From contig JAKPTZ010000115.1 of the NCBI GenBank assembly GCA_029555025.1, positions 24,898-88,897 on the forward strand: 64,000 bases of DNA, written 5' to 3'. Below, one piece after another: positions 7,309 to 59,647 of this stretch. Every line of letters starts with the position of its first letter. The first letter of the stretch is position 1. This stretch comes from Deltaproteobacteria bacterium. Its GTDB lineage: Bacteria > Myxococcota_A > UBA9042 > DTJE01. The position numbers were made by a program, and so were the translations under genes. The notes below the pieces were generated by a model. It had not been told where the DNA came from and made no database searches. It saw nothing but the letters and a program-made list of their open reading frames with translations.

Positions 7309-8175
7309 TCACCTGAAAAGCAGAAGCGGAGGGCCGTCGGGCGTAACCGTGATTCTGCTGCCGAAATCAACGGGAACCGCCGTTCGCCGGCCGTCAAGGT
7401 AAACCCCGGATCGAATCATGCGTGACTGCAAGACGATGCCTTCATCCCCCAGCATTCCGGAAACAAGCCGGTATCTGATCGAGTCCGGACGGCACCCGAA
7501 TGGTTCCCGGACAAGGTACTGCAGCCGGGTATCCTGCAGATCCTGAATCGAACCGCCCGCAGAGAGCATGGCGCCTGTTGAGCCGGCCGCCGTCGAGATC
7601 CAGACCCCCGAGCTCTTGTGGGTTTCGGACACCCCGGCCACCGTAATGACGTACCTGGATGTCGCCGACGGCACGACGTTGGCGAAAAGCACGTCGTTAA
7701 GGGCCGGCTGCGGGTGCCTTCTGCCGTCGATCGTGACGAAGGCGCGGGTCAGGCTTGCGGGCTGCTTCCGGTCGGAAAGGACAAGTTCCAGCAGCGACGG
7801 AAATCCTTCGGAGGTCGTGGCGCAGAAATGGCCGAAACTTGTCGATGGGGACGAGTTGACCGCCAGCAGCGGGGTGTTTCGGATGAACCTCGCGATGTCC
7901 AGGACGGTTCCGTCGCCGCCGACCGCAATCACGAGGTCGAATTTCTTCGACACGTTGTTTCTTCTGCGGGCGTGCGTGACTTCGATCCCGGCCTGCTCGA
8001 GTGTCCGCTTCACAACGGAAATCGTTTCAACAGTCTTGCGGTGTCCCGGTTCCTCGTCCGCCACCAGCGGATCCCCGGCATCAAGCAGCCGCTTCAGGGG
8101 CTGTGTCGCGTGCATGGATCTGCCCACGTCCATCAGCGTCGTCTTGGTGGCAAGCAGAACCCTTGAAATCTTCAT
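7309..8175 (-). CDS. nadK: NAD kinase
   Basis: 288 aa with DLVIAVGGDGTVL and NDVLF, a typical NAD kinase layout. The start lies 2 nt after the stop of the upstream Lon-like gene. Confidence 0.88.
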   Translation of the reverse strand: MKISRVLLATKTTLMDVGRSMHATQPLKRLLDAGDPLVADEEPGHRKTVETISVVKRTLEQAGIEVTHARRRNNVSKKFDLVIAVGGDGTVLDIARFIRNTPLLAVNSSPSTSFGHFCATTSEGFPSLLELVLSDRKQPASLTRAFVTIDGRRHPQPALNDVLFANVVPSATSRYVITVAGVSETHKSSGVWISTAAGSTGAMLSAGGSIQDLQDTRLQYLVREPFGCRPDSIRYRLVSGMLGDEGIVLQSRMIRSGVYLDGRRTAVPVDFGSRITVTPDGPPLLLFR

Positions 8176-8177
8176 CG

Positions 8178-10610
8178 TCAGGTCGTTTTCCGCTTTCCGG
8201 CCTTTCCAGGTCGGTCCCGTTCGGGCTTTTCCTTCTCGCTCATCGCCTTGACCGCAGCGTCGGTCGCGGCGAAAACCGAACCTTTTTCCCAGGTTCCGTC
8301 TTCCTGCCTGGTTCCGGCCGGCAAGCCGGTCATGATTTCGACCACTTCCTCGATGCGGCGAGCCGCCCAGATGTTGAAGCGTCGTTTCCTGACGGCCTCC
8401 TCGACCTCCGGTTCCAGAACCAGGTTGCGCTGGTTCGCGGCAGGAATGATCACACCCTGGCGTCCGGTCAGTCCGCGTTCACTGCAAATCTTGAAAAAGC
8501 CCTCGATCTTCTCGTTGACGCCACCGACCGCCTGCACGTCTCCGGTCTGGTTCAGGCTTCCGGTGACGGCGACGTCCTGCCTCAGCGGAATCCGGGAAAG
8601 CGAGGACAGAACCGCGCAGAATTCCGCGCATGAAGCCGAGTCCCCGTCGATGCGTCCGTACGACTGTTCGACCGTCAGGCTGACCGTGATGCCGGGAACG
8701 CGATTCTTTGCGAACATGTCGCCCAGAAGGCCGGAAATGATGAGGACGGCCTTGTTGAAGGTGTTTCCGGAAAGCCTTGCCTCGCGTTCGACGTTGATGA
8801 TTCCGGCGGAACCCCGGAATGATTTGGCGGTGATCCTCAGAGGCATCCCGAAAGTCTGGTCGGCCATCTGATAAACGGCAAGTCCGTTGATGACGCCGGG
8901 AATCGCGCCCTCGGAATCGATGATGACGGTTCCGTTCAGGACCATCTCGACGCCCTTGTCCCAGGAGAGCGAAACGCGATCCTTGCGCTGGCGGCGCGCG
9001 GCGATGATGTGCCTGGCGTCGATGATTGCCGATCCTTCCTGGCGTGCCAGGTGATCCGCCTCGATCAGCAGGTTCAGAACCAGATTGAACTGAAGCGTGA
9101 GTCTGTCGGACGCGTCGGCCATCCGCATGGAGTATTCGATCACGTCCGCGACGCCGGCCGACGAAACGGGAAGCAGTCCGTCACGTTCACTGGTCGTGGC
9201 TATGAACCTTGCATATTCCTGGAGCATGTCGTCGGAAACGGCGACTTCCGAGTCGAACTCCGCCTTGATCTGGAAGGCTTTTCCAAATTCCTCGTCTGCC
9301 TCGTGCAGAAGCTGGTACAGGAAATTGCTGCCTACCAGGATTACCTTGCAGGACATCGGGATCGGATTCGGCCGGATGGTCGTGGTAGGCAGGAACTGGT
9401 AGGCCTCGCCCATCTCGGCAATCTCCAGCAGCCTTTGACGCAGCACGGTCTTCAAGGCCTCCCACGCAAACGGATACGACACCAGTTCCCGGGTATGCAG
9501 AATCAGGAATCCGCCGTTTGCCCGAAGCAGAGAGCCAGCCTTGATCATCGTGAAATCGGTTGAATAGATGCCGTTTTCAACGCGCTTCTCGATGCGCCCG
9601 ACAAGGTTGTGGTAAGTCGGGGTGTTTTCGAAGACGACCGGCGCGCCCCTGACTTCGGAGTTGTCCACCAGCAGGTTGACCTTGTATTCGGTCATTGCCG
9701 CTTCGATGAGTTGTTTGGTCATGCCGTCGTCGGAGTCCTCGGCCAGGAATCGCGGGATGTTTTCAAGAATGCTGGCCCTGACCGCCTCCAGGTGGGCTAT
9801 CACTTCCGGACAAGATGAGTATTCGGCCAGCAGGGCCTTCATCGACTCATCCATCGTTTCGGCACACAGGCGGTTGTTGGCCACCTGAACCTTCGCATGG
9901 ACAATCTGCTCCGCTTCCTTGTTCTTTTCGAAAAACGCCGCGATTGCAGGCTCGATTGCCCTGCGGTTTTCATCGATGGTCTTCTTCTGGGCGTCCGAAA
10001 GCTTCGCGTATTCCTTGTTGCTGATGGCCTCGCCGTCAACCACGGGTATGGTGACCAGGCCTTCCTTTGTCTGCTTCACCTGGAAGTTGTTCCTGCCTGC
10101 CACCTCGTCCAGCCGTTCGAAGGCCTCGTTTTCGATGGCCAGTCCCTCGTTCAGGATTTCCTGAAGCGTTTCCTGGTGTTTCTGGGTGTGAAAGGCCCTG
10201 GGCAGGTTCTTCTTCAGCGAAGAAATGAACTCGTCCATCTGACCGCGGAACTGAAGCCCCTTGCCTGCCGGCAGGCTGAAAACCCTTGGGGTTTCGGGGT
10301 GCTTGAAGTTATTGACCATGCACCAGTCGGGGGGCGTGGGCATCTGCCTGGATGCCTCATCGACAAGTCTTTTGAGAAGGCTCGACTTGCCGGTTCCGGA
10401 GGCACCTGAAACGTAGATGTTGAAGTTTCGCTTCTGGATCGAAAGGCCGAGTTCGAGAGCTTTCTGGGCCCGGGCCTGCTCAACGACCCCGACAAGCTTC
10501 TCGACGTGCCTTGTGCTCCGGAACTTGAATATGGAAGGGTTGATGTGGCGATGTACCTGCTTCCAGCCCAGGCGGCAGTCTTTTTCAGCGGACGGTTTTT
10601 TCGCGGCCAT
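8178..10610 (-). CDS. Lon-family protease with AAA-like domain carrying a long helical insertion (LonC-like)
   Basis: 810 aa with Walker A VSGASGTGKSSLLK and a ~200-aa helical insert. The C-terminal Lon protease domain has a Ser-Lys dyad context (RIDGDSASCAEF ... GGVNEKIEGFF). The expected Walker B position reads GGFLILHTRE (no D-E by my manual alignment). Confidence 0.85.
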   Translation of the reverse strand: MAAKKPSAEKDCRLGWKQVHRHINPSIFKFRSTRHVEKLVGVVEQARAQKALELGLSIQKRNFNIYVSGASGTGKSSLLKRLVDEASRQMPTPPDWCMVNNFKHPETPRVFSLPAGKGLQFRGQMDEFISSLKKNLPRAFHTQKHQETLQEILNEGLAIENEAFERLDEVAGRNNFQVKQTKEGLVTIPVVDGEAISNKEYAKLSDAQKKTIDENRRAIEPAIAAFFEKNKEAEQIVHAKVQVANNRLCAETMDESMKALLAEYSSCPEVIAHLEAVRASILENIPRFLAEDSDDGMTKQLIEAAMTEYKVNLLVDNSEVRGAPVVFENTPTYHNLVGRIEKRVENGIYSTDFTMIKAGSLLRANGGFLILHTRELVSYPFAWEALKTVLRQRLLEIAEMGEAYQFLPTTTIRPNPIPMSCKVILVGSNFLYQLLHEADEEFGKAFQIKAEFDSEVAVSDDMLQEYARFIATTSERDGLLPVSSAGVADVIEYSMRMADASDRLTLQFNLVLNLLIEADHLARQEGSAIIDARHIIAARRQRKDRVSLSWDKGVEMVLNGTVIIDSEGAIPGVINGLAVYQMADQTFGMPLRITAKSFRGSAGIINVEREARLSGNTFNKAVLIISGLLGDMFAKNRVPGITVSLTVEQSYGRIDGDSASCAEFCAVLSSLSRIPLRQDVAVTGSLNQTGDVQAVGGVNEKIEGFFKICSERGLTGRQGVIIPAANQRNLVLEPEVEEAVRKRRFNIWAARRIEEVVEIMTGLPAGTRQEDGTWEKGSVFAATDAAVKAMSEKEKPERDRPGKAGKRKTT

Positions 10611-10692: not shown

Positions 10693-12318
10693 TCACCTTG
10701 CGGAGCCCTGACGGAGTTCAGGTGGAAGGTATCGCGAAAAGGCCCCGGCACCGGAGTTGGAACCGAAGCTTGCCCCCGATTCCAGCCCGCTTCCGGCGGT
10801 GGCCTTGACAGCGACCCCGCCGCGGGAGGCGTCGGTGACCGTCCAGTTCCTGCCGCCGATGATGACGTCGGCACCGGCGGCCGTCCTGGCCGACACCATG
10901 CCGACGGTGCGCCCTGTCCCCGCATCCACGACTTTGATCGAGGCGGAGTCGGCGATATTGGAGTGTATGCGTCCCCGTTCGCCCATGTCCATCAATCTTG
11001 ACGAGGCCCGAAGCACTTCGCCGGCGCTTTCGTCCAGGAAGCCTTCGGTACGCAGGTGATCGACGATCGCGTCGATGACCGGGCCAGGTGCGACGGGGTC
11101 AAGGATTCTTCGGATCGTGGCGCGTCGAAGTCCCTTTCTGTTTTCAAACAGAAGGGAAAATATCTGCTGAACCGCGACCGACAGGTCTGGCAGCCTTTCT
11201 GACTGCGGGAATGCCTGTTCGACGACGTCATTCATCAGCATCGCGAATCTTCCTTCATCCCCCGGTCCGTCCGGAACGAATATGGCCCTCATGCCGTCGC
11301 GCCGCCTGCAACCGCGGCCGACCCTCTGCTGGAGCGATGCGACCGTTTCGGGCGCTCCGAACAGAACGACTGCATCGACGTCACCGATATCGACCCCGAG
11401 TTCCATGGTGGATGTCGAGACCAGGATGCCTGCCTCGAAGTACCTGAAAGCCTTTTCAACGTCCTCGCGTTCCCGGCGGGCGAGGCTGGCGTGGTGCACC
11501 ATGACTCTCTCGGCCGGCCACGGGCCCGTCCTGAGCACCAGGGCCGCGGTTTCCTCGGTCTTCTTCCTGGTGTTGCAGAATATTATGGCCTTCGTGAGCC
11601 GTTCCGAACGCAGAAGCGCGAGTGCGGACGGGATGTCGGGGGACACCGTGGCATCCAGAGGCCTTCTTCTGTCATCCCGAACGACCTCGGGCCTTTCACC
11701 GAAAAGTCGCGTTCCCAGGCCGGCGGGATCCCCGACGGTCGCCGTTACGGCAATCAGCCGGGGCCTGGCCGCCGACCGTTTCATCTGAATCCGTCGAATC
11801 AGTATCCGCAACTGGTCGCCGCGCGCGGTACCGTCCATCAGGTGCGCCTCGTCGATGACGATCGCGTGAAGGTTGTCGAAAGCCGCCGGATGGCGGCAAA
11901 GCAGCGAATCGAAAGACTCCGGCGTCGTAATCAGGAGGTCGGTGTGATCCCTTCCAACCGGTGAAGGGCGGTCGCCGGTCCTGACCCGGCTGCTCATCTT
12001 CATTGCCGCGGCCGGCTCGCGAACGCGGTTTTCGATGTCGTTAGCCAGCGCCCTGGTGGGAACGATGTACAGAATGCCAACCTGCGGACGGGGATCTTCA
12101 ATGGCGGCCATTTCCTCGAAAAGCGGGGCGAGCACGGCCTCGGTCTTGCCGGAAGCGGCGGGCGCGACAACGACGGCATCCCGCCCCGAGGCAATGACCG
12201 GAATCGCAAGTTCCTGGATCCCGGTAAGGTTGCCGAAGCGGGCCAGAAATGCCGGAAACGCGCGCGGAAGGGATCTGGCGGCATCCATCCGGCTGAATCT
12301 GTCGATGCCCGGTTTCAA
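10693..12318 (-). CDS. Lhr-like superfamily-2 DEAH-box helicase (BrxHI-like)
   Basis: 541 aa. Motif I VVAPAASGKTEA, Ia YIVPTRALAND, Ib LLITTPESFDSLL, II VIDEAHLM, III AVTAT, VI QRVGRGCRR. ATGA start/stop overlap (12315-12318) with the upstream ATPase gene. Confidence 0.85.
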   Translation of the reverse strand: MKPGIDRFSRMDAARSLPRAFPAFLARFGNLTGIQELAIPVIASGRDAVVVAPAASGKTEAVLAPLFEEMAAIEDPRPQVGILYIVPTRALANDIENRVREPAAAMKMSSRVRTGDRPSPVGRDHTDLLITTPESFDSLLCRHPAAFDNLHAIVIDEAHLMDGTARGDQLRILIRRIQMKRSAARPRLIAVTATVGDPAGLGTRLFGERPEVVRDDRRRPLDATVSPDIPSALALLRSERLTKAIIFCNTRKKTEETAALVLRTGPWPAERVMVHHASLARREREDVEKAFRYFEAGILVSTSTMELGVDIGDVDAVVLFGAPETVASLQQRVGRGCRRRDGMRAIFVPDGPGDEGRFAMLMNDVVEQAFPQSERLPDLSVAVQQIFSLLFENRKGLRRATIRRILDPVAPGPVIDAIVDHLRTEGFLDESAGEVLRASSRLMDMGERGRIHSNIADSASIKVVDAGTGRTVGMVSARTAAGADVIIGGRNWTVTDASRGGVAVKATAGSGLESGASFGSNSGAGAFSRYLPPELRQGSAR

Positions 12319-13832
12319 ATCGCGTCGCCTTCGCCACCGGAAACGACCATCTGTTCCACGTCGCCATCGGGATAGAAGCGGACGTAGTCGAGGGCTTCGA
12401 TCACGGACTTGATGAACGTTCTGGTCGATTGTATCCGGTCGGCCGTGTACAGCAGCCTGAACAGCCTGTCCTGGCGCTTCTTCTCCAGTTTCACGCCGTA
12501 CGTGGTGTCATAAGTGCGGCATATCCTGCGGAAAAGCTCGCGAAGCTGATCCATTGAAAGGACATCGACCTGGACCCTTGTAATCGTTTCCCTGGTCCGG
12601 CTGAATTCATCCTGGAGCGTGCCCGGAGTAAGCGCGAACGCGACCTTCAGGGCACCGGGAATTCCGGTGGTGTATCTGACGGGGTGATGTGCCGAGTATA
12701 TCAGGCCGGATACCGCGCCCTGGATTGTTTCGGCTCGAATGAGTTCCTCGTCCATGAGTACGTCGTCATCGTTGGCTGTAAGGACAAGCCCGCGGAAGAA
12801 GTTCATTCCGCGCTGGGCCTGGTATCGGTACATTACGCTTCCGGCCACTTCCGCCTCGTCCAGAAGAACCAGCAGGCCCATCATTCCAAGGACTTCCGAT
12901 GCTGCCCTGGCAGTTGCCGAAAGTATGTTGCAGTAGATGTTGGCACAGGTCGAGTAATCGTAAAGCGTCTTCTTGCGCCCGATCCGGCCTTCCCCGCGGG
13001 CTTCGATGAAGTCCCATTCTTCCTCGGTAAGTCCTGGCCTTTCGTGCGGCTCCTCCTCCTGGAGCCGCTCCAGGACGCTTGCAAAAAGCCAGTGGTCGCC
13101 AAGGACATCCCGCCAGCCCGGCCGGGACGCCACTTCACGCCAGAATCCACGGAAGTTCAACACCCGGTCATCAACGACGGCCTTGAATCCGGTGACCAGA
13201 TGCCGGTAAGCCTTCTTGGGAAAAGCTGCCGATGCCTCGGATGGATCGAAACCCGCCATGGCGACCGCGTAGCCCAGTTGCTCCGCTTCGCCCGCCAGGA
13301 ATCGCAGCAGGTGGCTCTTGCCCGCGCCGTAGGCCCCTTCCACCAGGGCTGCGCCCTCGGCATGGTCGTGAAGGAATTCCATCAGTTGCCCGACTTCATC
13401 CTTGCGCCCGACCGTCCACTCCCCGATCGATGAAGATGGCACGATCCCAAGCCTGAAGGCCTCTATAGCCATGCTTGCACTGACCGGCCGGTTTTCCGGC
13501 AGCATTCGATACACCGGAGCCCGATGTTTCCTGGCTCCTGCAGGTTCCTCGCTCGCTGGAGCCTGTCCCCCAAGCAGGCGGAGGATTGCGTCAAGGGATG
13601 TGCTGGAGGGTGCCGTCGATCGAACAGCCGGAGCCTCGTCTTCGACGAGCTTCAGCCCTTCACCGGCACGGACAAGTTCCCGCGCCGGGATCCACAGGCT
13701 GTAAACCCCGAAGTTGACACGGAATTCAAATCCGCCAATCCGTGAACCAAGCACCGTGCCGTCGCCATATGTGGCATGCGTCACGGCATCGCCCTTTTCG
13801 AACCTATTCATAGATATCGTCCGGGTCGGCAT
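12315..13832 (-). CDS. BrxD-type (DUF2791-like) P-loop ATPase, paralog B, with N-terminal Tudor/SH3-like domain
   Basis: 505-aa ORF; alternative start ATG at 13811 (MNRFEKGD). Walker A VEGAYGAGKSHLL and Walker B LLVLLDEAEVAGS. The N-terminus FEKGDAVTHATYGDGTVLG resembles the PcrA/UvrD C-terminal Tudor motif. Overlaps the stop of paralog A. Confidence 0.78.
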   Translation of the reverse strand: MPTRTISMNRFEKGDAVTHATYGDGTVLGSRIGGFEFRVNFGVYSLWIPARELVRAGEGLKLVEDEAPAVRSTAPSSTSLDAILRLLGGQAPASEEPAGARKHRAPVYRMLPENRPVSASMAIEAFRLGIVPSSSIGEWTVGRKDEVGQLMEFLHDHAEGAALVEGAYGAGKSHLLRFLAGEAEQLGYAVAMAGFDPSEASAAFPKKAYRHLVTGFKAVVDDRVLNFRGFWREVASRPGWRDVLGDHWLFASVLERLQEEEPHERPGLTEEEWDFIEARGEGRIGRKKTLYDYSTCANIYCNILSATARAASEVLGMMGLLVLLDEAEVAGSVMYRYQAQRGMNFFRGLVLTANDDDVLMDEELIRAETIQGAVSGLIYSAHHPVRYTTGIPGALKVAFALTPGTLQDEFSRTRETITRVQVDVLSMDQLRELFRRICRTYDTTYGVKLEKKRQDRLFRLLYTADRIQSTRTFIKSVIEALDYVRFYPDGDVEQMVVSGGEGDAI

Positions 13833-15093
13833 CTTCGCCGGGCGAAAGCATTCGCGTGGCGAATTCCTCGTCGATCACGGTGTCCGGTTCGAACCGCAGC
13901 GCGTGCATTGCCCGCACGACGGCCTGGACGAACATTCTCTTGTACCCTATGTCGCCAAAGGCGCGTTCGGCGGTCGCATCCGCGAGAACCCTTACCAGAT
14001 TGCGGGTCTGATCGGCCGGCATGCGGAACTGGTAGGCGTTTTCATAGACGCCGCACAGTTTTCTTCCGATGTCGTTCATCAAGGTCTTCGGATCCCTTGC
14101 GATTCGATCAAGCCGGACTTTGACGCCGGTGGGGTTCGTGTAGTCGAATACCGTCTGAATTCTCTGGCGAAGCGCTTCGTAAGCCGGAGATCGGCCCTCG
14201 GTCAGGAACTGCTCGTTTGGAATGGCATAAAAGACCATCGTGTTCGCGAACGAGGAAGCCCCGCACTGATCAACCATCTCGCGCAGGTTGGCCAGCATCA
14301 GTTCCTTCTGCTTGGAAGTCATCGAGCCGGCCTGTTCGGCCTCGTCGAACAGGATGATGATGCCGCCGAAGCGCAGGTTCCGAACCCACGTCACCAGTGA
14401 TCTGATCGTGGCGAACGCCTGGGATCTGTCAATCGGCTGCAGAACCCCTCCAGCCTTGTGCGACAGCCGATCCCAGCCATCGACGGTAAGGTACTGCAGC
14501 ATTGCGTCGAACTGATCCTGGTCATTGCGGGTCAACGCTTCAATGGCAAGTCGGACGGCCTTCCCGAAATTCGGGTTTTCGCAGCCACGAACCGAATCGG
14601 CCGCAATTGCCCTGATGCGATCTTCCAGTTGTTCGCCGGCGATGCCTTCCTCTTCGGCGATGGCGGTCTTCATGTCGTGATAGACCGCCTTGATGAAGGC
14701 GCCGAGCCCGCGCTCCCCGCCGGTCAGGAGTTCATCCGGCGTCAGTGGACGCATCAGGTTGACCGCGATGGACTTGTAAACCATGTCCAGGCGGTGGAAC
14801 GGCGACGATTCCGCCGAAAGCGGGCAGTATGTGACCAGGTAGTCATGACGCCAGGCAAGCTCGCGGACGCTGTACAGGAAGTGTGTCTTGCCGCCGCCAT
14901 ACGTTCCGACGACGACTTTGAACGACGACCCGCCTTCGCGGACGAATGACTTGAGGTAATCGTCCTCGATCACCTTCAGGTACCCGTCAAGGCCCGAGGA
15001 AAAGAACTGGAAACCCCATTCGGGCGGGGTTCCGGACGAACCGACCACTTCGATAATGTGGCGGGCCTGCCTGGCGGTCAGGTTGTCAACCAT
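13804..15093 (-). CDS. BrxD-type (DUF2791-like) P-loop ATPase, paralog A
   Basis: ORF 13804..15243. The start is preferred at 15093 (MVDNLTARQARHIIEVVGSSGTPPEWG), which leaves a 31-nt gap to the upstream gene. Walker A VVGTYGGGKTHFL and Walker B IIILFDEAEQAGS. Family assignment is from memory of BrxD/DUF2791 sequences, not from a search. Confidence 0.78.
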   Translation of the reverse strand: MVDNLTARQARHIIEVVGSSGTPPEWGFQFFSSGLDGYLKVIEDDYLKSFVREGGSSFKVVVGTYGGGKTHFLYSVRELAWRHDYLVTYCPLSAESSPFHRLDMVYKSIAVNLMRPLTPDELLTGGERGLGAFIKAVYHDMKTAIAEEEGIAGEQLEDRIRAIAADSVRGCENPNFGKAVRLAIEALTRNDQDQFDAMLQYLTVDGWDRLSHKAGGVLQPIDRSQAFATIRSLVTWVRNLRFGGIIILFDEAEQAGSMTSKQKELMLANLREMVDQCGASSFANTMVFYAIPNEQFLTEGRSPAYEALRQRIQTVFDYTNPTGVKVRLDRIARDPKTLMNDIGRKLCGVYENAYQFRMPADQTRNLVRVLADATAERAFGDIGYKRMFVQAVVRAMHALRFEPDTVIDEEFATRMLSPGEDADPDDIYE

Positions 15094-15124
15094 CTGAAAT
15101 CTCCCGTTCCTGAGTCGTCCAAAC

Positions 15125-15988
15125 TCAGGCAGTAACCTTAACAAACCGGAGCGTTGCGAAGTTAACGCCCTCAAGGATTCCAGGTCTCGGCACCCAGAGG
15201 TGATCCCCGGCATTCCTTGTCTGGGACATCGTCGCCACGTCAAGCCTCAGTTCCATTCCCCGGATGATCCGGTTTCTGAGCCTTGACAGATCCGCCGCGA
15301 ATTCCACCCTTCCGTACGACCTGAAGGTCTCCTTTCGCGGATCAATCAGGAAGGCCGGCTTCTGGCGCATAAAGGCGATTTCCGGGATCAGCGACGTGAC
15401 CGGCACGCGGCCCCCGGACTCGGCACCGGTGCGTATCACGGCCAGCCGGTAAGCCTTTTCAAGTTCGGCAAGGAAAGCCGGCTCGTCGAAAGAATCCGGA
15501 AAGAGCCTGCCGTTCTGTTCCCGGATCTGCGCGCAGATGTCTTCGGGATCCAGAGAAGCCGCCGCCAGCCTGTATTTGCCGGGTCCAAGCCATATGGTGC
15601 ACAGGCCCTTTGAACCGAATGTGAATTCCAGCGAGAAAGGCCCGGCCGTCAGCGTGGGAAGGTTTCCGGACACCTTGAAGTCTTCTTCGTTCAGGCGTTT
15701 TGCGACCGCTCCCGCAAGCAGCGCCTTCTCGCGATCAAGGCGGCTGCGGGATTCCGACAGCGTCGCCGCAATCGCCGCCTTCATTGCCGCGGCGCCCGTT
15801 TCCAGCCCGGCGATGTCCCCGATTGCCCGCAACGCCCTTTCGGCCATGTCGATTGATGATGCCAGGTTCCCCTTGCGGTGTTCCCTGGAGAATTCCTCAA
15901 CCGACTTTCCGGCGTTGGCGGCAGCCTTGATGGCCTTCAGGAACGTCTTGACCTGTTCTTCCATGGGCTTCCCCCGGGGTTGCTTCAT
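15125..15988 (-). CDS. hypothetical protein (first gene of the ATPase-helicase cassette)
   Basis: 287-aa ORF with normal amino-acid composition and no TM or signal peptide. Same strand as paralog A and tightly spaced with it. I recognise no family. N-terminal helical part (EEQVKTFLKAIKAAANAGKS), C-terminal mixed part. Confidence 0.62.
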   Translation of the reverse strand: MKQPRGKPMEEQVKTFLKAIKAAANAGKSVEEFSREHRKGNLASSIDMAERALRAIGDIAGLETGAAAMKAAIAATLSESRSRLDREKALLAGAVAKRLNEEDFKVSGNLPTLTAGPFSLEFTFGSKGLCTIWLGPGKYRLAAASLDPEDICAQIREQNGRLFPDSFDEPAFLAELEKAYRLAVIRTGAESGGRVPVTSLIPEIAFMRQKPAFLIDPRKETFRSYGRVEFAADLSRLRNRIIRGMELRLDVATMSQTRNAGDHLWVPRPGILEGVNFATLRFVKVTA

Positions 15989-16074
15989 CCGATCCGGGTC
16001 GCCCCGGCCGCGCAGTATTATAAGGCCAAATCAATTTATGGCGATTGAAAGCGTGTAACCTGTCGGGAACTTCG

Positions 16075-17076: not shown

Positions 17077-17309
17077 CGGCCAAATCCGGGTTGTCCATTT
17101 TCGGACAAGTGAAAAAGTACGTCGCGGATTGTAACATGGATCCGTCCGGGCCGGGCCGGACGCCTTCGCGCGCCATGCCGTCAGCCAGAGTGCCGGCCCT
17201 TGTCTGGCGGCGCGTTTCGGGCGATCATGCCGGCTGAAGCGGTCTGAATGTTGTGCGGGGATTGTCTGCCGGGCGTCGCAAGTCGATCGCCGGGCATCGG
17301 AGATTCCAG

Positions 17310-20300
17310 ATGCGAACCGGGTCTTCCGGGATGTTGCCGGTCGTTGCGATGGCGTGTCTATTTGTGTCGTCGTGCGGCAGCCATGTGGAGAAGGCCGATA
17401 TCGGGGGCTCCTGCCGGGAAGACTCCGATTGTCAATCCGCCCTCTGTTTCGCAGACGTATGCATCGATCCCCTGGCGGACCAGGATTGGGACGGTCTTTC
17501 GGCGGGCGATGAAGTTGAAATCGGGCTGGATCCGTTTCACCCGGACAGTGATCGCGACGGCATTCCCGACGGCCTGGAAGTGGGCCCCGAGCTTGCGACT
17601 CCGGCGGATTATGACGGGGACGGCGTCATCGACGCTCTTGAGTCCGCTTTTTCGGATTCTGACGGGGACTGCCTTCCGGATCAGTATGATCCTCTCGATG
17701 CGCTCGGGCCGGCCGGCTCAAGTCAGATGGTGCCGGTGCTGTGCATGACAGCCGGGGTCTGCGGGGCCGCAATGAACACCATTGTCGCTACCTGCGACGG
17801 CTCGAAGGTAACGTGCAGCTATGAAGGCGTGCCAGGCTGGAACGCCGCGGAATGGATGTGTGACGGAAAGGACAACAACTGCGACGGTCGAACCGACGAA
17901 GGTTTTCTTCACGAAGGCTTGTCCATCGGACTTCCCTGCCTTGGGGCAGGAAGTTGTGGCCCGGGTATCGTCGAGTGCGATGACTCGGGCTTTTCGACCA
18001 GGTGTTCGTCAAACCCCGGCGCTTCTGGCGACAGATCCATGCCCGAGGTGTGCGACGGTCTCGACAACGATTGCGACGGCTTGACCGACAACGGCATGTC
18101 GTGGAAGGGCGTGCCCCTCGGGGAACGTTGTGACGGCGAAGGCGAGTGCGGCATCGGCAAGGTCGAATGCCTGGCCGACAGGACGGCTTCCTGTTCAACC
18201 ATGAAGGGTGGAAGTCACGAACAGATCCAGGAGGAATCCTGTGACAACCTTGACAACGACTGTGATGGACGAACCGACGAGACATTTTTCGGCAACGCTT
18301 CCGAACTGTGCGTTCCCCGCGGCGTCTGCGCCCTGTTCCCCAACATGATTTCGTTGAAGTGCGAGCAGGGGATCCTGAAATGCGACTTCAGTGCTGTGCC
18401 TGGGTATTCGGGAAGTTCCGAGATGTTCTGTGATGGACAGGATGACGATTGCGACGGGCTGGTTGACGAGGAACTGTCGTTCGCGGTGACCGAACCTGGC
18501 GCCGTGATAAGGCTTCCCGGCCAGTCCTGCGGTTCGGGCGCCTGTGCCGGCGGGGTCGTCACGTGCTCGCCGAGTTCGATGTCCGGCATGTGTTCCACCA
18601 CGCCCCTTGCCGCGCCGGAGAAGTGCGATGGAATCGATGACGACTGCGACGGGTACATAGACAACGGTTTCGCCCTGAGTTGGAAGCCGGCGCTTGAAAC
18701 CATCATGGACAGGGAGCCGCAGGCGCTTGTTTCGTCGCGGATGGCCGTGGTCGAGTATTCCCTGGAGGATCCGCCTGAACCAGGTGAACCGCCTGCCGGC
18801 ATATATGTATGCGGCGGGGCCGTTGGAAGTCCTGAGAACGGTTCGTCCGGGATTTCAAGGCGTTGCTGGCTGTACAGCTTTGATTCGCATCGTTTCGATC
18901 GACTTCCCGACGGGCCCGAAGTCGATTCGGGGGCGATGGTTCATGACAGGGCGGGCGGAAGCCTGCTGATGGTGGGTCGTCTGTTCGCGTCCGGCGAAGT
19001 CGCCGTTTTCCGGATGAACGGAATCGATTTCGGATGGAGCAGGCTGCCCTGGGAACTGGAAAGTGGCGAGGTTCTTGCCGCCGGAGTGGATCCGGTTGAA
19101 AACACCCTGAATATCCTCACGAATGGTGATTCCGGGCTTCTGGTGAGCATGGTCGGGCTGTCCGATGGCTCCGTCCTGACCGTTCAGGCGGGCGAGCGCG
19201 TCTCTGCCGGCTCCTTTGCCGCCGGTTCGCCCTCCGGGGGGTTTGTCCTGTTTCATGCCTGCAACGAGCTTGCCGGCACTGTGGTCGAACATGTCTCGCC
19301 GGACGGGCAGGTCAACGGGCTGCCGCTTGCAGGACAGAGTCCATGCATGTCCTTCGGCGCGGCGGTCATGCCGATCCCGGGACGCATCGTCGCGATTGAG
19401 GGCAGGGCACTTGACGGCTCGGTCCAGGCCACAAGGGAATTCCTGCTGGGCGATGACCTGTGGCACCACGAAAGGATCACGGTTCCCGGCGGCCAGGGAT
19501 CCGTCATGCATCCCGCGATGGCCTCCTCTGGCGACACCGTCTATGCATTTTCCGGGGAGTATGGTGATGGAGGGGCACTGCGGCGTGTGATCCGGCTGGA
19601 TCGCGAATCGACGGAATGGCTGGTTGACAGCTTCGTAAGCGGTCCATCTCCCAGGGCGGGCGGCGTTGCGTTCGTTTCGCGCCTGACGGCGGCGGCCTAT
19701 TTCATTGGCGGCTATTCGGATGAACCGGGCGGGCCTCAGCCAGTCCAGGATGTGTGGAAGATTGATCTGGTCAATCCGCGGATTGGACAGATTGCGGTGT
19801 CGGGCGAACCAGGGGCGGTTATAGGTGCTGCTGCGGCCATCAATGATTCCGGCCAGACCGCCTACATTTTCGGGGGGCTCGATTCGCCGCCGGGGCCCGA
19901 CTCCAGGCCGGTTAGCAGGTTCCTTCGGTTCAACTGCATTCAGTCGAGGTTTGATTCGATTCAGTCGGGGGAAGGCGGTCCGACGGCACGTTATGGACAC
20001 TCGCTTGTCTGGGCCGGTGACAGGTTGCTTCTTTACGGCGGCCTGAACGACACCGGTTTCCTTTCCGATCTCTGGTCCTGGGCTCCGGACGAAGGCTGGA
20101 TCTTCATTGGATATTTCGAACTCAGCTATGGCCACCAGGCGTTCTGGGACAATCCCGGCAAGCGCATGCTGGTCGTCGGGGGCAGGCCAGGTGGGGGCCT
20201 TCGCGCATACTATCCCGCCACATCCACGTGGAAAAGCCTGCTGTCCGGGGTTCTGTTCGATTCGTATGAAGGCCACGGCTGGTTTGACGAGCAATCCGGC

Positions 20301-20522
20301 AGCGTGCTTTATCTTTCATCGACATCCAGCGACGCGGTGGTCGTGACTTTCCTTGAAGACGGGCTTGTCGATCAGGTCATCCCCGGACTGCAGCCGGATT
20401 TGATCGATGCGTTCGTGGTTTATGATCCGTTCGGGCGCCGGGCCATGATGCTCGGTGGCAGGGATCCCTCGAACGGGACCGTCGGAACCGTTTCGCAAAT
20501 CGATCAGTCCTGCGGGCGATGA
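17310..20522 (+). CDS. lipoprotein with thrombospondin-type-3-like Ca-binding repeats, five MopE-type CDGxDNDCDG motifs and a C-terminal Kelch-like propeller
   Basis: ORF 17253..20522; start preferred at 17310 or 17331. Lipobox LFVSSCGS and DxDxDGxxD repeats. Five MopE-type motifs: CDGKDNNCDGRTDEG, CDGLDNDCDGLTDNG, CDNLDNDCDGRTDET, CDGQDDDCDGLVDEE, CDGIDDDCDGYIDNG. Kelch-like ARYGHSLVWAGDRLLLYGG. Confidence 0.8.
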   Translation: MRTGSSGMLPVVAMACLFVSSCGSHVEKADIGGSCREDSDCQSALCFADVCIDPLADQDWDGLSAGDEVEIGLDPFHPDSDRDGIPDGLEVGPELATPADYDGDGVIDALESAFSDSDGDCLPDQYDPLDALGPAGSSQMVPVLCMTAGVCGAAMNTIVATCDGSKVTCSYEGVPGWNAAEWMCDGKDNNCDGRTDEGFLHEGLSIGLPCLGAGSCGPGIVECDDSGFSTRCSSNPGASGDRSMPEVCDGLDNDCDGLTDNGMSWKGVPLGERCDGEGECGIGKVECLADRTASCSTMKGGSHEQIQEESCDNLDNDCDGRTDETFFGNASELCVPRGVCALFPNMISLKCEQGILKCDFSAVPGYSGSSEMFCDGQDDDCDGLVDEELSFAVTEPGAVIRLPGQSCGSGACAGGVVTCSPSSMSGMCSTTPLAAPEKCDGIDDDCDGYIDNGFALSWKPALETIMDREPQALVSSRMAVVEYSLEDPPEPGEPPAGIYVCGGAVGSPENGSSGISRRCWLYSFDSHRFDRLPDGPEVDSGAMVHDRAGGSLLMVGRLFASGEVAVFRMNGIDFGWSRLPWELESGEVLAAGVDPVENTLNILTNGDSGLLVSMVGLSDGSVLTVQAGERVSAGSFAAGSPSGGFVLFHACNELAGTVVEHVSPDGQVNGLPLAGQSPCMSFGAAVMPIPGRIVAIEGRALDGSVQATREFLLGDDLWHHERITVPGGQGSVMHPAMASSGDTVYAFSGEYGDGGALRRVIRLDRESTEWLVDSFVSGPSPRAGGVAFVSRLTAAAYFIGGYSDEPGGPQPVQDVWKIDLVNPRIGQIAVSGEPGAVIGAAAAINDSGQTAYIFGGLDSPPGPDSRPVSRFLRFNCIQSRFDSIQSGEGGPTARYGHSLVWAGDRLLLYGGLNDTGFLSDLWSWAPDEGWIFIGYFELSYGHQAFWDNPGKRMLVVGGRPGGGLRAYYPATSTWKSLLSGVLFDSYEGHGWFDEQSGSVLYLSSTSSDAVVVTFLEDGLVDQVIPGLQPDLIDAFVVYDPFGRRAMMLGGRDPSNGTVGTVSQIDQSCGR

Positions 20523-22419: not shown

Positions 22420-23958
22420 TCAGTCCTCGACCGGCAATGGATCGGTGAACGCGGAGAATCCGGGATTCGCGACGGAGCACATGGTGAAGGTTGCCCGATA
22501 GTCAAGGTTGCCGGAAATCTGGATTGGTCTTTTGAGGCTTTCGGTCGATGTCACGAAAACCTCCCGGTCAATCAGGTGCTGCTGGGTCGCGGCGGTAAGC
22601 GGCTGGCCTGATGAATCGCGGATGGCCGTCCCGACAAATGACAGGAAGCGCCCGGACGGGGAAAGCGACATGCTGTCCGGCGACACCGAAATCATTTCCG
22701 GCGCCCCAACCTTTGGAAAGTCCGTGATCTTTCTGAATATGTCCGTAAGATTCGCGTCCGTGCCGATGTCGCTGACGGAGAATGCCAGGATGTTGGTCCA
22801 TGTCTTCCCGGGGGCGCCGTCACAGGTCGATGCCGCGGCGACGATCAGTTCCCGGCCGTCGCGGGAAAGCAGCAGGGGCTGCATGATCGAGGTGTACGGC
22901 CAGTCCCTGTTCAGGTTGTAACATGCGTTTGAAGCGTATCGCGACGGAGTCCTGACCAGCGTCACCGATTCAATTGAACCACTTTCCACGTCCATCTTCG
23001 CCAGCCGGAGTTCGCGCGCGTCGAAGACGTGGGCGAACAGCAGGGTTCGCCCATCCGCTGAAAGGATCGCCGGGATGTCGTCCGAAAGCTGGGGGGCATC
23101 CTGGGAATACATGCACTTGCCCTGAAGGTCAATCGCCTGGCACACCGGTACGCCGGCCTTTCTAAGGCCTGCCTTTTCGTTGAACAGGTAAAATGTCAGG
23201 GATTCAAGTTCCAGATTCTGCAGAACCAGCGTGACACCGTCCGCGCCGAGCCTGAACCTTCCGGTGTAGTTGGAGCTGCCCGCAAGATCCGGCCCCGGGA
23301 ACTCAAACAACTCCTGGATTTCAAAAACGGGATCATCAAGGTCGATCCGACCGAAGCGATAGCAGGTCCGTATTCCGCCATCCTTTGATTCGCAATCATT
23401 TTTTACCCTGGAAACGTAAAGTGACCTTCCCGAAAAGACTGCCTGGCGAACGGCCGGGATCGGCTGCTCCGTAACGATTGTCGGTTGTCCTGTCTCATCG
23501 ATGGCGATAAGCCTGGCGTCCTGTCCCGGTGTGCCGACGCCCGTTGTCGTCGCCACGAGCAGGAAGTTGAGGGCGGGTTCCGTCACGCAGCCCAGGGAGC
23601 AGTCGAGTCCCAGAGGGGCGAGGATCCTTGCGTTAACCTGGAAGTTGTCCTTCCATGCCGGGAAGCCGGGCTGCCCCTCGCCGTCGAGCGGGTTGGAAAT
23701 CCCGAGGTCGCCGGGCCTGTCGCCCGCCGTGGCCGCGTATCCGTAGATAACGCGAAAGTCTTCATCGACCTCGACCGGATCAAGGTTCGGAATGTCAGGG
23801 CCGGCGTCGGTAATCACGGTGTCCGTATCGCCGCCGACATCGCTTTCCGATTCCTGCCCGGCGCACCACGGGGCCGAAACAAGAGTGGCCGTGGCAAGCA
23901 GGAATGTCGGCCATGACGCGACCCTGCGGCCCGAAACGGTGGCAATGCGCTTCCTCAT
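22420..23958 (-). CDS. secreted hypothetical protein (beta-propeller-like)
   Basis: ORF 22420..24072. Start preferred at 23958 (MRKRIATVSGRRVASWPTFLLATATLVSAPWCAG, a signal peptide). Repetitive beta-strand-rich body with SxDG(R/K)xL strings as in TolB-like propellers. Function unknown. Confidence 0.62.
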   Translation of the reverse strand: MRKRIATVSGRRVASWPTFLLATATLVSAPWCAGQESESDVGGDTDTVITDAGPDIPNLDPVEVDEDFRVIYGYAATAGDRPGDLGISNPLDGEGQPGFPAWKDNFQVNARILAPLGLDCSLGCVTEPALNFLLVATTTGVGTPGQDARLIAIDETGQPTIVTEQPIPAVRQAVFSGRSLYVSRVKNDCESKDGGIRTCYRFGRIDLDDPVFEIQELFEFPGPDLAGSSNYTGRFRLGADGVTLVLQNLELESLTFYLFNEKAGLRKAGVPVCQAIDLQGKCMYSQDAPQLSDDIPAILSADGRTLLFAHVFDARELRLAKMDVESGSIESVTLVRTPSRYASNACYNLNRDWPYTSIMQPLLLSRDGRELIVAAASTCDGAPGKTWTNILAFSVSDIGTDANLTDIFRKITDFPKVGAPEMISVSPDSMSLSPSGRFLSFVGTAIRDSSGQPLTAATQQHLIDREVFVTSTESLKRPIQISGNLDYRATFTMCSVANPGFSAFTDPLPVED

Positions 23959-24080
23959 CCGGTCATGCTCCGCGCAATTCAAGGTCAATCTTACCGTTGT
24001 TTGCCATTTGAGTTCCATCTGAAAGGTGATATAATATCGACCCTTTTTCCCCTTTGGCCTTGCGCCTGGCACTGGAGTTT

Positions 24081-41707: not shown

Positions 41708-42768
41708 TCATGTTCACCGTGGCCCTGGCAAGCAGCGGTTTCGCCGCTGTCGGCCTGGTGCGCCGGAAGCGTCAACCTGAAGGTTGCCCCGCCCCCCGGA
41801 GTGTCTTCAACGGTCACAATCCCGCCGGACGCCCGGGCGAATCCGCGAACTATCGACAGGCCGAGCCCCAGTCCGGGAACGTCGGTCTGGCTTGCGGCCT
41901 TTCCGCGGCAGAAGCGGTCGAAAATCATGCTGGTCTCGTCAGACGCCACCCCGGGGCCCTGGTCGGCAACCGAAATGACGACCTCGCCGAACGGCGCAAG
42001 GACTTCGTGAAGCCGGACACCGGGAAAGAAAACCTCGATTCCGACGCGCACCGGCTTTTCGTGATTCGCCCGTCCGTGCGTAAGGGCATTTGAGACCATG
42101 TTGACGACTGCCCCGGCAAACGCGTCGAAATCGACCGATACGTTGTCATTGCATGGGCCTTTGATGTCATGCGCCGCAAGAAGGACGACCGAATCCCTTG
42201 TGGCCGGGGACGCCAGGATTCCGGCCAGCGCGTTTTTGACAAGTTCCGATGCGCACCCGCTTGTCGCCGCGTTGGGGGCGGCCTTTCCCGATTCCCGGTC
42301 CGCCGACAGTTCGTAACCGACCGCCTTTTCCACCAGCGACGAAAGACGGCGCGATTCGATCTCCAGCATCTGCAGAAATTCGCGGCGTTCGTCTTCCGAA
42401 TGGAACCTTTCGTCCCTCAGGGTTTCGATGCCCATCCGGATGGATGCCATCGGGGTGCGCAGTTCATGGCTGACGAACGCGATGAAGTCGGCCTGGGCCC
42501 GCGCCATCCTGTTCTGACGAAGAAGAAGCCCCAGGCTGGTGAACGTGCCGGCGATGACGGCAAGACCCATCACGATGACAAGGACGCCAAGCGCGATGTC
42601 CCCGGCCTGGCGCCAGAACACAAGGACAAGTATGCCTGCCACCGCGGATCCGGCGGCTGGAAGCAGCACGGATCCGAAAAGCAGCCACGGAATCGCCCTT
42701 ATGACGGCAGCCCTGAAAGCACCGGCCATGCCATACCCCCGCCAGCAATCATCCCGCACCGATGTCAT
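41704..42768 (-). CDS. sensor histidine kinase
   Basis: 354 aa with two N-terminal TM segments. H-box FIAFVSHELRTPMASI. HATPase motifs NALTHG, DQGPGV and GLGLSIV. Confidence 0.88.
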   Translation of the reverse strand: MTSVRDDCWRGYGMAGAFRAAVIRAIPWLLFGSVLLPAAGSAVAGILVLVFWRQAGDIALGVLVIVMGLAVIAGTFTSLGLLLRQNRMARAQADFIAFVSHELRTPMASIRMGIETLRDERFHSEDERREFLQMLEIESRRLSSLVEKAVGYELSADRESGKAAPNAATSGCASELVKNALAGILASPATRDSVVLLAAHDIKGPCNDNVSVDFDAFAGAVVNMVSNALTHGRANHEKPVRVGIEVFFPGVRLHEVLAPFGEVVISVADQGPGVASDETSMIFDRFCRGKAASQTDVPGLGLGLSIVRGFARASGGIVTVEDTPGGGATFRLTLPAHQADSGETAACQGHGEHE

Positions 42769-42838
42769 GCAATTGTAACCGGGCCGGCGGAAATGCCGTA
42801 GTGCGGAGCTTCAGGGATTGGGGCAGGAGTGCTGAACC

Positions 42839-42942
42839 GCTGCGGGCGGATGTAATCCGCCCATACAGGGACAGTCGTGCCAGGCGCTGCGGGCGGATGT
42901 AATCCGCCCATACAAGGCGTACGGGCGAATGAAAATTCGCCC
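42839..42942. repeat. intergenic hairpin repeats: 29-nt direct repeat x2 (47-nt period), each containing a GGGCGGA/TCCGCCC stem, plus a third hairpin GGGCGAAT-GAAA-ATTCGCCC
   Basis: gctgcgggcggatgtaatccgcccataca occurs at 42839-42867 and again at 42886-42914. The third stem-loop is at 42923-42942. The repeats lie between the divergent kinase and CNNM genes. Confidence 0.6.
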
Positions 42943-42964
42943 GGGGCGGTGACGTTGACCGCTG

Positions 42965-44329: not shown

Positions 44330-44380
44330 CGGCGGCGTCGCGGGGGCGGGCCGCATCTTTCATTTTCTTCCTGGTGAATC

Positions 44381-51187: not shown

Positions 51188-51318
51188 CTGTTCCCCCAAA
51201 AGATTTCCACAATGACCAGAGGATGATAACCCCGTGCACGCGCGCGTTCAACAACGGCGGGGAAAAATGCGTTGATCTCGGCAGGCTTGCGATACGGAAG
51301 TAGTTCGGGGTGAGCCGG

Positions 51319-59467: not shown

Positions 59468-59647
59468 ATGGTTGTGCGACCTGCCGTGTTCATTGAACCG
59501 ATCCGGCAGGTCGGAATTCGGTGCAGATTGTCACCGTTCTGGCGGTCGAAAGTCAAGGAAGGCACCCCCAGTCCGGTCAGCGCCATCAAAGGCCATATCG
59601 ACCCTGACCATGTTAGTCCCCGAAATCACTTGTTGACTGGCGTCGGC

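Follow-up and report, generated by a model that had tools for sequence, protein, structure and literature searches.

A conserved four-gene ATPase-helicase cassette related to the pairs of BREX type 2 and Shango, with a possible role in genome maintenance

The window analysed here, a stretch of 64,000 nucleotides (nt) from contig JAKPTZ010000115.1 of a Deltaproteobacteria bacterium placed in Myxococcota_A, contains a cassette of four same-direction, tightly coupled open reading frames (ORFs) that together span positions 10693-15988 on the minus strand. In order, these encode a basic protein of an unannotated family (g1), two ATPases of the PF10923 family, the second of which carries a predicted Tudor-type head (g2 and g3), and a short Lhr-like superfamily 2 (SF2) helicase (g4). 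That the cassette is a real four-gene operon is confirmed: about 40 independent loci show the genes in this order, which places the arrangement far beyond chance. On the evidence of its sequence it is neither BREX (bacteriophage exclusion) type 2 nor Shango; it is an uncatalogued third arrangement of the ATPase-helicase pair that these systems possess as BrxD-BrxHI and SngB-SngC, respectively. The reading of its function offered here is a tentative one: g1-g4 may constitute an ATP-driven nucleic-acid remodelling machine, which in this chromosome would serve as a fixed genome-maintenance module and not as a mobile anti-phage island.

Direct reading of the sequence, with coordinates re-verified, bears out the original prediction of four packed co-directional genes between 10693 and 15988. 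A 31-nt gap separates g1 from g2 and an overlap of 8 or 29 nt, set by the choice of g3 start, joins g2 to g3, both as had been described; the 4-nt overlap of g3 with g4, previously given as ATGA, reads TTGA, with TTG as the start of g4. The ATPase and helicase motifs that had been picked out are all present, the single correction being to the Walker B context of g3, which is VLLDEAEVAGS rather than LLLDEAEVAGS.

The unity of the cassette is most evident in its co-conservation. Scanning species-representative genomes with a g1 profile yields 16 loci, all of them in metagenome-assembled genomes (MAGs) of Myxococcota; the order rluD-g1-g2-g3-g4-LonC-nadK is collinear in every Myxococcota genome locus that is long enough to show it, down to 38% identity of g1. 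With the LonC protease gene as bait in metagenomes, the cassette lies directly upstream in 11 of the 15 contigs with informative upstream sequence; one of the other four has g2-g3 abutting LonC without a helicase, and three are devoid of both cassette and rluD and differ in synteny. No empty rluD-LonC site is found among the 27 syntenic Myxococcota loci (16 from genomes, 11 from metagenomes). The same order also occurs between unrelated flanks in the distant loci L019-L024, L045, L048 and L049, and in all of these loci neighbouring genes of the cassette overlap or nearly abut. Every component is a one-to-one orthologue (identities of 26-38% for g1, 38-50% for g2, 28-47% for g3 and 36-41% for g4); for g2 the 38-50% holds between the window and the distant cassettes L017-L024, as against 26% identity to BrxD. 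The carriers are, by their source names, Myxococcota, WOR-3, Candidatus Poribacteria, Dehalococcoidia and Candidatus Desulfofervidus, and all are MAGs. Across orthologues the Walker A and B motifs of both ATPases and helicase motifs I, II, III and VI are invariant, except for the glutamate of the g4 DEAH box, which is kept in 24 of 25. The co-occurrence that the original prediction had proposed checking is thus found, across several phyla, and the NTP-driven nucleic-acid module that it had supposed is a genuine co-conserved unit with invariant catalytic motifs.

Natural variants define the minimal form of the cassette. L017, L018 and L046 consist of g1-g2-g3 without the helicase; L043, in which g2-g3 abuts LonC, has the Tudor head and no helicase; L047, from Ca. 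Desulfofervidus, is reduced to g2-g3 alone. A headless g3 is found together with the helicase in L045 and without it in L046 and L017: helicase and Tudor head are lost independently. Variants exist without the helicase, without the head or without g1, which leaves the ATPase pair, usually accompanied by g1, as the minimal conserved core.

The gene for g2 (13804-15093, minus strand; 429 amino acids, aa) is the best conserved of the four, and its product is a full-length PF10923 P-loop/AAA+ ATPase. It scores 131.6 bits on PF10923 (BrxC_BrxD, formerly DUF2791; gathering cutoff 22.2 bits), covering profile positions 3-409 of 414. Its Walker A motif, GGGKTH (14881-14898), is invariant in 28 of 28 orthologues, and so are the aspartate and glutamate of its Walker B motif, LFDEAE (14335-14352). 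The N-terminal part of g3 also clears the PF10923 cutoff, at 55.8 bits, and BrxD is the best PADLOC profile for both proteins (124.7 bits for g2). The label 'BrxD-type' that the two ATPases were first given is accordingly correct for the family and does not carry over to orthology: on the NCBIfam equivalog BREX_BrxD (NF033438, cutoff 350 bits) g2 scores 125.2 and g3 41.5 bits, so that both fail, and g2 is 26% identical to a Streptomyces BREX-2 BrxD over 363 aa (E 2e-25). Toward each other g2 and g3 show barely any likeness by BLASTP (27% identity over 98 aa). Because alignment of the two families by HHalign nonetheless reveals full-length homology (99.8% probability, E 1e-27, 336 columns), the proposed duplication of the ATPase is upheld, with g2 and g3, as judged by these profiles, being ancient and very deep paralogues. 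The g2 family comprises 568 clusters; neither as a single sequence nor as a 36-sequence profile does g2 find a meaningful match in the PDB.

In g3 (12315-13811, minus strand; 498 aa, with an alternative start at 13832) a divergent BrxD-family AAA+ ATPase follows a Tudor head of UvrD/PcrA type (residues 9-48; 13668-13787) and a flexible linker (residues 49-109; 13485-13667). The ATPase has the Walker A motif GAGKSH (13311-13328; G, G, K and H invariant in 25 of 25 orthologues) and the Walker B motif LLDEAE (12849-12866; DEAE invariant in 25 of 25), and in its predicted fold it most resembles ORC/Cdc6, DnaA, clamp-loader and transposition-target ATPases of the TnsC and MuB type. When a profile of 31 heads is compared with PDB sequences, the top seven matches are UvrD/PcrA entries (best E 5.4e-4), most of them the isolated C-terminal Tudor domain; the AlphaFold2 model of the head is a five-strand barrel (strands at residues 9-12, 16-24, 29-33, 38-42 and 46-48) with a predicted local distance difference test (pLDDT) score of ~86-92. 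Profile and model together mark the Tudor-like head that had been noticed on one of the ATPases as real and as a probable homologue of the UvrD/PcrA domain. H12, G16, G18, F34 and W40 are at least 95% conserved, and the consensus V.H..YG.GTV...R..G.E..V.F....LW.P..EL is carried by about 81 of 95 g3 homologues. The linker is of low pLDDT (below 50 at residues 57-70), mostly lacks secondary structure in the model, and differs in length and sequence among homologues.

The likeness to PcrA extends to part of its binding surface. Mutation of H681, W684, K712 or L714 of PcrA abolishes binding to RNA polymerase (RNAP; PMC5397179). The invariant H12 of g3 aligns with H681 and its Y15 with W684, thereby presenting a histidine and an aromatic residue at the same positions of a five-strand barrel that is likewise flexibly tethered to its motor. 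The K712/L714 pair cannot be aligned to g3, in which an invariant tryptophan occupies the corresponding strand, and the setting differs as well: the head of g3 is N-terminal on an AAA+ ATPase, not C-terminal on a superfamily 1 helicase.

The fourth protein, g4 (10693-12318, minus strand; 541 aa), starts at the TTG that overlaps the stop of g3 and is an Lhr-like/BrxHI-like SF2 DExH helicase with Pfam DEAD and Helicase_C domains, laid out as a helicase core, a winged helix that is weakly detected (SelB-wing_2, E 0.003-0.009) and a C-terminal barrel. Motif I (ASGKTE, 12139-12156) is invariant in 25 of 25 orthologues, as are Q, R, G, R, G, R and R of motif VI (QRVGRGCRR, 11302-11328); in motif II (DEAH, 11842-11853) D and H are kept in all 25. 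Among PDB sequences the mycobacterial Lhr core 5v9x matches best (E 2.8e-23) and YprA next, and the initial description of g4 as a short Lhr-like DEAH helicase, motifs included, stands. Among PADLOC profiles, BrxHI, for which there is no curated cutoff, scores best (245.7 bits, positions 21-519 of 698) and SngC scores 189.8 bits. Identity with Streptomyces BrxHI is 29% over 534 aa (E 3e-40), covering core, winged helix and barrel; the C-terminal domain of ~170 aa that BrxHI possesses is missing from g4. Pfam does not detect Lhr Domain 4 (PF08494) in g4, which would therefore fall into the 'Lhr-like' group that is defined by having no Pfam-detectable Domain 4 (PMC8301817). Orthologues of g4, whatever their length, keep a tail at the extreme C-terminus, GAF.RYLPPEL (10696-10755), possibly a docking peptide.

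A further segment of g4, VDAGTGRTV (10903-10929), is hairpin-like and resembles the first half of the motif that PcrA partners share, [VIL]-D-x-x-T-G-E-[VIL]-[VILT], with arginine in place of glutamate; it is best regarded as a lead. Its [VI]D..[TS]G is kept in 24 of 25 orthologues, and the glutamate position is always R, K, Q or C. Docking of the g3 Tudor head on this hairpin was considered and is not supported: the key glutamate is never present, and loss of the head does not co-vary with loss of the helicase.

The gene for the remaining protein, g1 (15125-15964, minus strand), specifies ~279 aa with an isoelectric point (pI) of 9.4; an upstream ATG at 15988 would give 287 aa. Since nearly all homologues are 279 aa long and start MEE..., and since GGGGGAAG, a Shine-Dalgarno sequence, precedes the ATG at 15964, that ATG and not the one at 15988 is probably the true start. 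The protein has no match in Pfam or PADLOC (at E <= 0.1) or in NCBIfam. It is nevertheless not the orphan it was taken to be: an exhaustive profile search assembles a family of 684 representative clusters, 416 of them at E <= 1e-10 and nearly all of 270-295 aa, though the family is unannotated. The AlphaFold2 model (pLDDT 87.3) places three long helices N-terminal to an alpha/beta domain and has no recognisable fold relative, Foldseek giving no matches; kinship with winged-helix, ORC or Cdt1 proteins was discarded because the weak structural matches lie within noise. Conservation among 157 family members is low in the N-terminal helices and falls mainly on G, P, L, F and W, with a few polar residues; no catalytic signature is among the conserved positions. 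Four relatives of 354-469 aa (P0186, P0190, P0203 and P0227) have a HeH domain of the Rho_N/SAP type, a nucleic-acid-binding module, inserted in the N-terminal helical region (PF07498, 20-25 bits, with P0186 alone above the cutoff). These inserts suggest that g1 binds nucleic acid. With no catalytic signature, a pI of 9.4 and the HeH insert in some relatives, g1 looks like an adaptor or nucleic-acid binder; of the two roles first envisaged for it, sensor or effector, that of an effector enzyme is not supported. The family merits a candidate model in Pfam or in DefenseFinder/PADLOC.

The cassette lacks the core genes of BREX type 2 (Pgl). Neither its neighbours nor the ten largest other ORFs of the window encode PglX, PglZ, PglY/BrxC or PglW according to PADLOC and Pfam, and no PglZ stands beside the cassette in any related locus examined; a genuine BREX-2 locus (L044), by contrast, has pglW, pglX, pglZ, brxD and helicase genes. 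There is no TerB protein either: g1 does not match one, and none is called beside related cassettes. The claim that the cassette stands alone, apart from the Pgl proteins and TerB, is thereby borne out. It matches no catalogued system in PADLOC 2.0, NCBIfam or Pfam, and is not described in the literature searched on BREX, Shango, Lhr or YprA helicases, which included the 2026 BREX-diversity survey and the Hachiman and modularity-network papers, so that the suspicion of a system not yet catalogued holds in these sources. Because BREX core and TerB partners are absent and g2 fails the NCBI BrxD equivalog cutoff, the cassette is classed as an uncatalogued variant of the BrxD-BrxHI/SngB-SngC pair.

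Each of the known systems nevertheless shares something with it. In common with the BrxD-BrxHI pair of BREX type 2 the cassette has a PF10923 ATPase of the ORC/Cdc6 class tightly linked to an Lhr-like SF2 helicase, and a C-terminal tail motif is common to the two helicases (F..YLPPEL in g4, FSEALPPRL in BrxHI). It differs in its duplicated ATPase, one copy of which has a Tudor head (BrxD has been described as a stand-alone ATPase; PMC12839542), in its additional conserved partner g1, and in its fixed core-genome context, the BREX-2 loci compared being on Streptomyces and Rhodococcus plasmids. With Shango (SngA, which is TerB; SngB; SngC) it shares the plan of a stand-alone operon in which a small protein that is not an enzyme accompanies a PF10923-type ATPase and an Lhr-like helicase, without methyltransferase or nuclease. 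The PADLOC scores for Shango proteins (SngB, 51 bits on g2 and 34.6 on g3; SngC on g4) are all below those for BrxD and BrxHI. The cassette again differs from Shango in lacking TerB, with g1 of a different predicted architecture, and in having two ATPases instead of one, one of them Tudor-headed; Shango occupies variable defence hotspots (10.1101/2022.11.11.516204), whereas the cassette is fixed in place. With Lhr and its core, g4 shares the DExH SF2 motor, winged helix and C-terminal barrel, 5v9x being its best solved relative; its 183 bits fall far short of the 850 set as cutoff by the NCBIfam equivalogs for Lhr and ligase-associated helicases and, unlike Lhr, it is always encoded with the ATPase pair. 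The classical loader systems (ORC/Cdc6-MCM, DnaA/DnaC-DnaB, TnsC, MuB) show no sequence-level orthology to the cassette, and g4 is an SF2 helicase of monomeric type, not a ring hexamer; loading by this cassette is conjectural.

Beyond the observed architecture, homologies, intact motifs, co-conservation, fixed position and purifying selection, we infer complex formation, helicase loading, a substrate, a partner for the Tudor head and a biological role along the following lines. The translationally coupled g2 and g3 would assemble on DNA as an ATP-dependent hetero-oligomer of the initiator or loader type represented by ORC/Cdc6, DnaA, TnsC and MuB, with the basic, non-enzymatic g1 helping to bind or bridge nucleic acid. 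The ATPase pair would recruit, load or activate g4, an Lhr-like helicase of presumed 3'-to-5' polarity, on single-stranded DNA or an RNA:DNA hybrid. The Tudor head of g3, on its linker of ~60 residues, would dock the assembly on a partner presenting a β-hairpin. The PcrA/UvrD Tudor domain docks on such a motif in RpoB and UvrB, and PcrA/UvrD suppresses R-loops (PMC8318588); by analogy, the partner of g3 could be the β subunit of RNAP or UvrB. Docking of this kind would direct g4 to stalled transcription complexes, R-loops or damaged DNA. The same logic could serve defence if the recognised intermediates lie on invading DNA, and the two roles need not be mutually exclusive.

The argument for genome maintenance derives from where the cassette resides and how slowly it changes. 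Three lineages hold it, across deep divergence, at one position each in the core genome: Myxococcota, between rluD and LonC-nadK; a WOR-3-like lineage, between TetR-RND and glycosyltransferase genes; and a third lineage, beside thrS-infC-rpmI-rplT-pheST. Across Myxococcota loci the identity of g2 is 62-83%, ranking first of the seven syntenic genes in every locus; its mean (74.9%) exceeds those of rluD (64.2%) and LonC (66.9%) and also that of nadK. Fixed position, the absence of any observed empty site and strong purifying selection, with g2 above its neighbours in conservation, argue for maintenance. Defence genes usually turn over and diverge fast. Neither a nuclease nor any other toxic effector is among the products of the core cassette, and no relative of g1 turns up among 72,556 plasmids, among 50,697 phage records or in IMG/VR, collections in which the uncultured carrier taxa are poorly represented; g2 matches only two BREX-2 BrxD proteins on plasmids.

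It is possible, if somewhat doubtful, that the cassette is instead a defence system against phages or plasmids that has so far gone undescribed, akin as a sibling to Shango and to the accessory pair of BREX type 2, and stably inherited in Myxococcota. In such a system g1 would replace TerB/SngA as sensor or adaptor, the BrxD-like pair would recognise foreign DNA or replication and transcription intermediates, and the BrxHI-like helicase would disrupt the targets, in some genomes with an added nuclease. Ancestry speaks for this: in PADLOC both g2 and g3 match BrxD best, and g4 matches BrxHI best and SngC next. So do some of the surroundings. In L048 (Dehalococcoidia) the cassette is followed by a type I restriction-modification (R-M) system, and in L049 (Ca. 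Poribacteria) type III CRISPR-Cas genes with Csx1 lie upstream and an apparently operonic gene for a DrmC-like phospholipase D (PLD) nuclease follows; near the cassette of L020 lie a STAND-like AAA_16/TPR protein and a PIN toxin-antitoxin pair. Yet of about 10 independent contexts, too few to decide between defence and maintenance, two are defence islands (L048 and L049), one (L020) is ambiguous, and seven have housekeeping or metabolic flanks, whose unannotated neighbours give no significant PADLOC matches. The three long-held core-genome positions, the conservation of g2, the absence from plasmids, phages and viral contigs, the lack of an effector in the core cassette, and the fused Tudor domain, whose type is familiar from helicases of repair and transcription, likewise tell against a defence system.

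The details of these loci are of interest in themselves. In L048 (6396-11133) the R-M genes are those for HsdM, HsdS and HsdR (MTase_I, 705 bits), with a GajA/OLD-like TOPRIM ATPase (149 bits) encoded between hsdS and hsdR. In L049 (11959-13664) the PLD nuclease gene begins 29 nt after g4 and is overlapped by 4 nt by a gene for RNase HII; the two proteins may be added effectors, and RNase HII hints at RNA:DNA hybrid substrates.

A number of these and other observations weigh against reading the cassette as a genome-maintenance machine. Every characterised relative of the ATPase-helicase pair, BrxD-BrxHI of BREX type 2 and SngB-SngC of Shango alike, is anti-phage, and BrxHI and SngC belong to an SF2 helicase clade described as defence-specific (PMC12278908). 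Two of the ~10 contexts are defence islands; the patchy phylum-level distribution implies horizontal transfer, and so fits horizontal spread of a defence system; and, since the carriers belong to uncultured taxa of which plasmid and phage collections hold little, absence from those collections counts only weakly. L017, L046, L043 and L047 have no helicase, and since some lineages dispense with it, helicase loading cannot be the whole function. The Tudor assignment and its proposed partner face difficulties of their own: as a single sequence the head of g3 scores 12.2 bits on PF21196 (E 0.17; cutoff 23.9), and for the lysine of PcrA that pairs with the glutamate of its partner (K712 in Geobacillus, K727 in B. 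subtilis) g3 offers no clear counterpart, nor does it for the second PcrA residue pair as a whole; RNAP or UvrB is put forward here by analogy. The original prediction left the choice between defence and maintenance open, and the evidence is indeed split, fixed position and selection favouring maintenance, ancestry and the two defence islands favouring defence.

An evolutionary elaboration of the maintenance reading would have the cassette as the domesticated or the ancestral housekeeping form of a BREX/Shango-type pair, a core-genome machine recruited to RNAP or UvrB through its Tudor-AAA+ fusion; taken as a whole, this is unlikely. Less probable still is a helicase loader linked to replication or recombination (restart, origin-independent initiation, or the processing of chromosomes or plasmids) with no connection to transcription, in which the ORC/Cdc6-like pair would mark a DNA structure and load the helicase, and the Tudor head would bind a cassette protein or a replisome component. 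The closeness of the predicted g3 fold to ORC/Cdc6, DnaA, clamp-loader and transposition-target ATPases suits this proposal, and the conserved hairpin of g4 resembles a Tudor docking motif; but the motif's glutamate is absent from g4, head and helicase losses do not co-vary (L045 is headless with a helicase, L043 has the head without one), no replication genes are consistently adjacent, and the structural matches of g1 lie within noise, with none from Foldseek. That the four genes are merely adjacent, or the decaying remnant of a BREX type 2 or Shango system, can be dismissed as scarcely credible: BREX core genes and TerB are indeed absent, g4 is shorter than BrxHI and the helicase or g1 has been lost in some lineages, but order and tight coupling are kept across phyla, the catalytic motifs are invariant, g2 is more alike within the cassette subfamily than to BrxD, and purifying selection is strong.

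The surroundings of the cassette in the window are those of an ordinary chromosome, with tRNAs and secreted repeat proteins; the flanking genes are rluD and those for a LonC-type protease, NAD kinase, secDF, ispG and relA/spoT. No defence or mobile-element genes were found in the window by PADLOC, applied to the neighbours and the ten largest other ORFs, or by Pfam, and the GC content and skew of the cassette are those of its flanks, so that composition gives no sign of recent acquisition; the housekeeping character, similar composition and freedom from mobile elements that had been ascribed to the flanks are all found. Scans of the window with Rfam and for tRNAs return only three tRNAs, far from the cassette. 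In the spacer between rluD and g1 a promoter-like site, TCGCCA-16-TATAAT (16017-16044, minus strand; 10 of 12 consensus matches), is a candidate operon promoter, to be read with the fact that the scanned region holds 3 such sites against 2.4 expected in shuffled sequence, which is not above expectation. Extra DNA of ~2.7 kb lies between rluD and g1 in L007 and L016, and of ~0.9 kb between g4 and LonC in L014, L015, L029 and L038.

The LonC-type AAA+ protease (8178-10610, minus strand; Pfam AAA_32, LonB_AAA-LID, LonC_helical and Lon_C) is encoded 82 nt downstream of g4. No terminator-like site is found between the two on the minus strand, and read-through from g4 into LonC, with co-transcription, is possible. 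LonC adjoins the cassette in all Myxococcota loci and is not next to the cassettes of other lineages. It was rejected as a BrxL-like fifth component: the PADLOC match to BrxL is marginal (E 7e-4) and confined to the protease domain, Pfam describes an ordinary LonC, and the protein is a neighbour in Myxococcota only. It is a lineage-specific neighbour, perhaps co-transcribed, and not part of the core cassette. LonC and the NAD kinase gene (7309-8175) form a conserved pair of their own, because they stay linked even in the cassette-less contigs that show nadK (L032 and L042).

Elsewhere in the window are three very large proteins with eukaryote-like repeats, all probably secreted or on the surface, which are typical of Myxococcota and unrelated to the cassette: one of 1089 aa with MopE metal-binding motifs and Kelch propellers (17253-20522), one of 910 aa with Dicty_CTDC repeats (33835-36567) and one of 1787 aa with Dicty_CTDC and lamin-tail domains (45836-51199). 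Four ORFs of 535-674 aa (22420-24072, 42749-44356, 53232-55061 and 59468-61492) have no Pfam match at E <= 1e-5, and the three to which PADLOC was applied, all but that at 42749-44356, are also without a PADLOC match; some of the four may be spurious frames in high-GC sequence.

Returning to the cassette and its possible part in genome maintenance: what the BrxD-BrxHI pair senses or does in BREX type 2, and the SngB-SngC pair in Shango, ranks with the least understood aspects of these systems. The cassette provides a third, self-contained context for a pair of this type, and one with features that lend themselves to testing: two paralogous ATPases, which imply a heteromeric loader, a tethered Tudor docking domain, the g1 family, and natural variants. 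Three features recommend it for further study: its fixation in the core genome, its fusion of a Tudor head to an AAA+ ATPase, and the g1 family, which is new. The coexistence of fixed core-genome copies with copies in defence islands presents a rare case for relating defence modules to genome-maintenance modules. If the Tudor head binds RNAP or UvrB, this class of helicase would be linked to transcription-coupled surveillance. On the less likely reading of a domesticated or ancestral housekeeping form recruited to RNAP or UvrB, bacteria would have in the cassette a pathway, not recognised until now, that clears R-loops, stalled transcription complexes or transcription-replication conflicts; this would in turn suggest that the defence versions, in R-M or CRISPR islands and sometimes with a PLD nuclease, sense the same aberrant transcription or replication intermediates on invading DNA.

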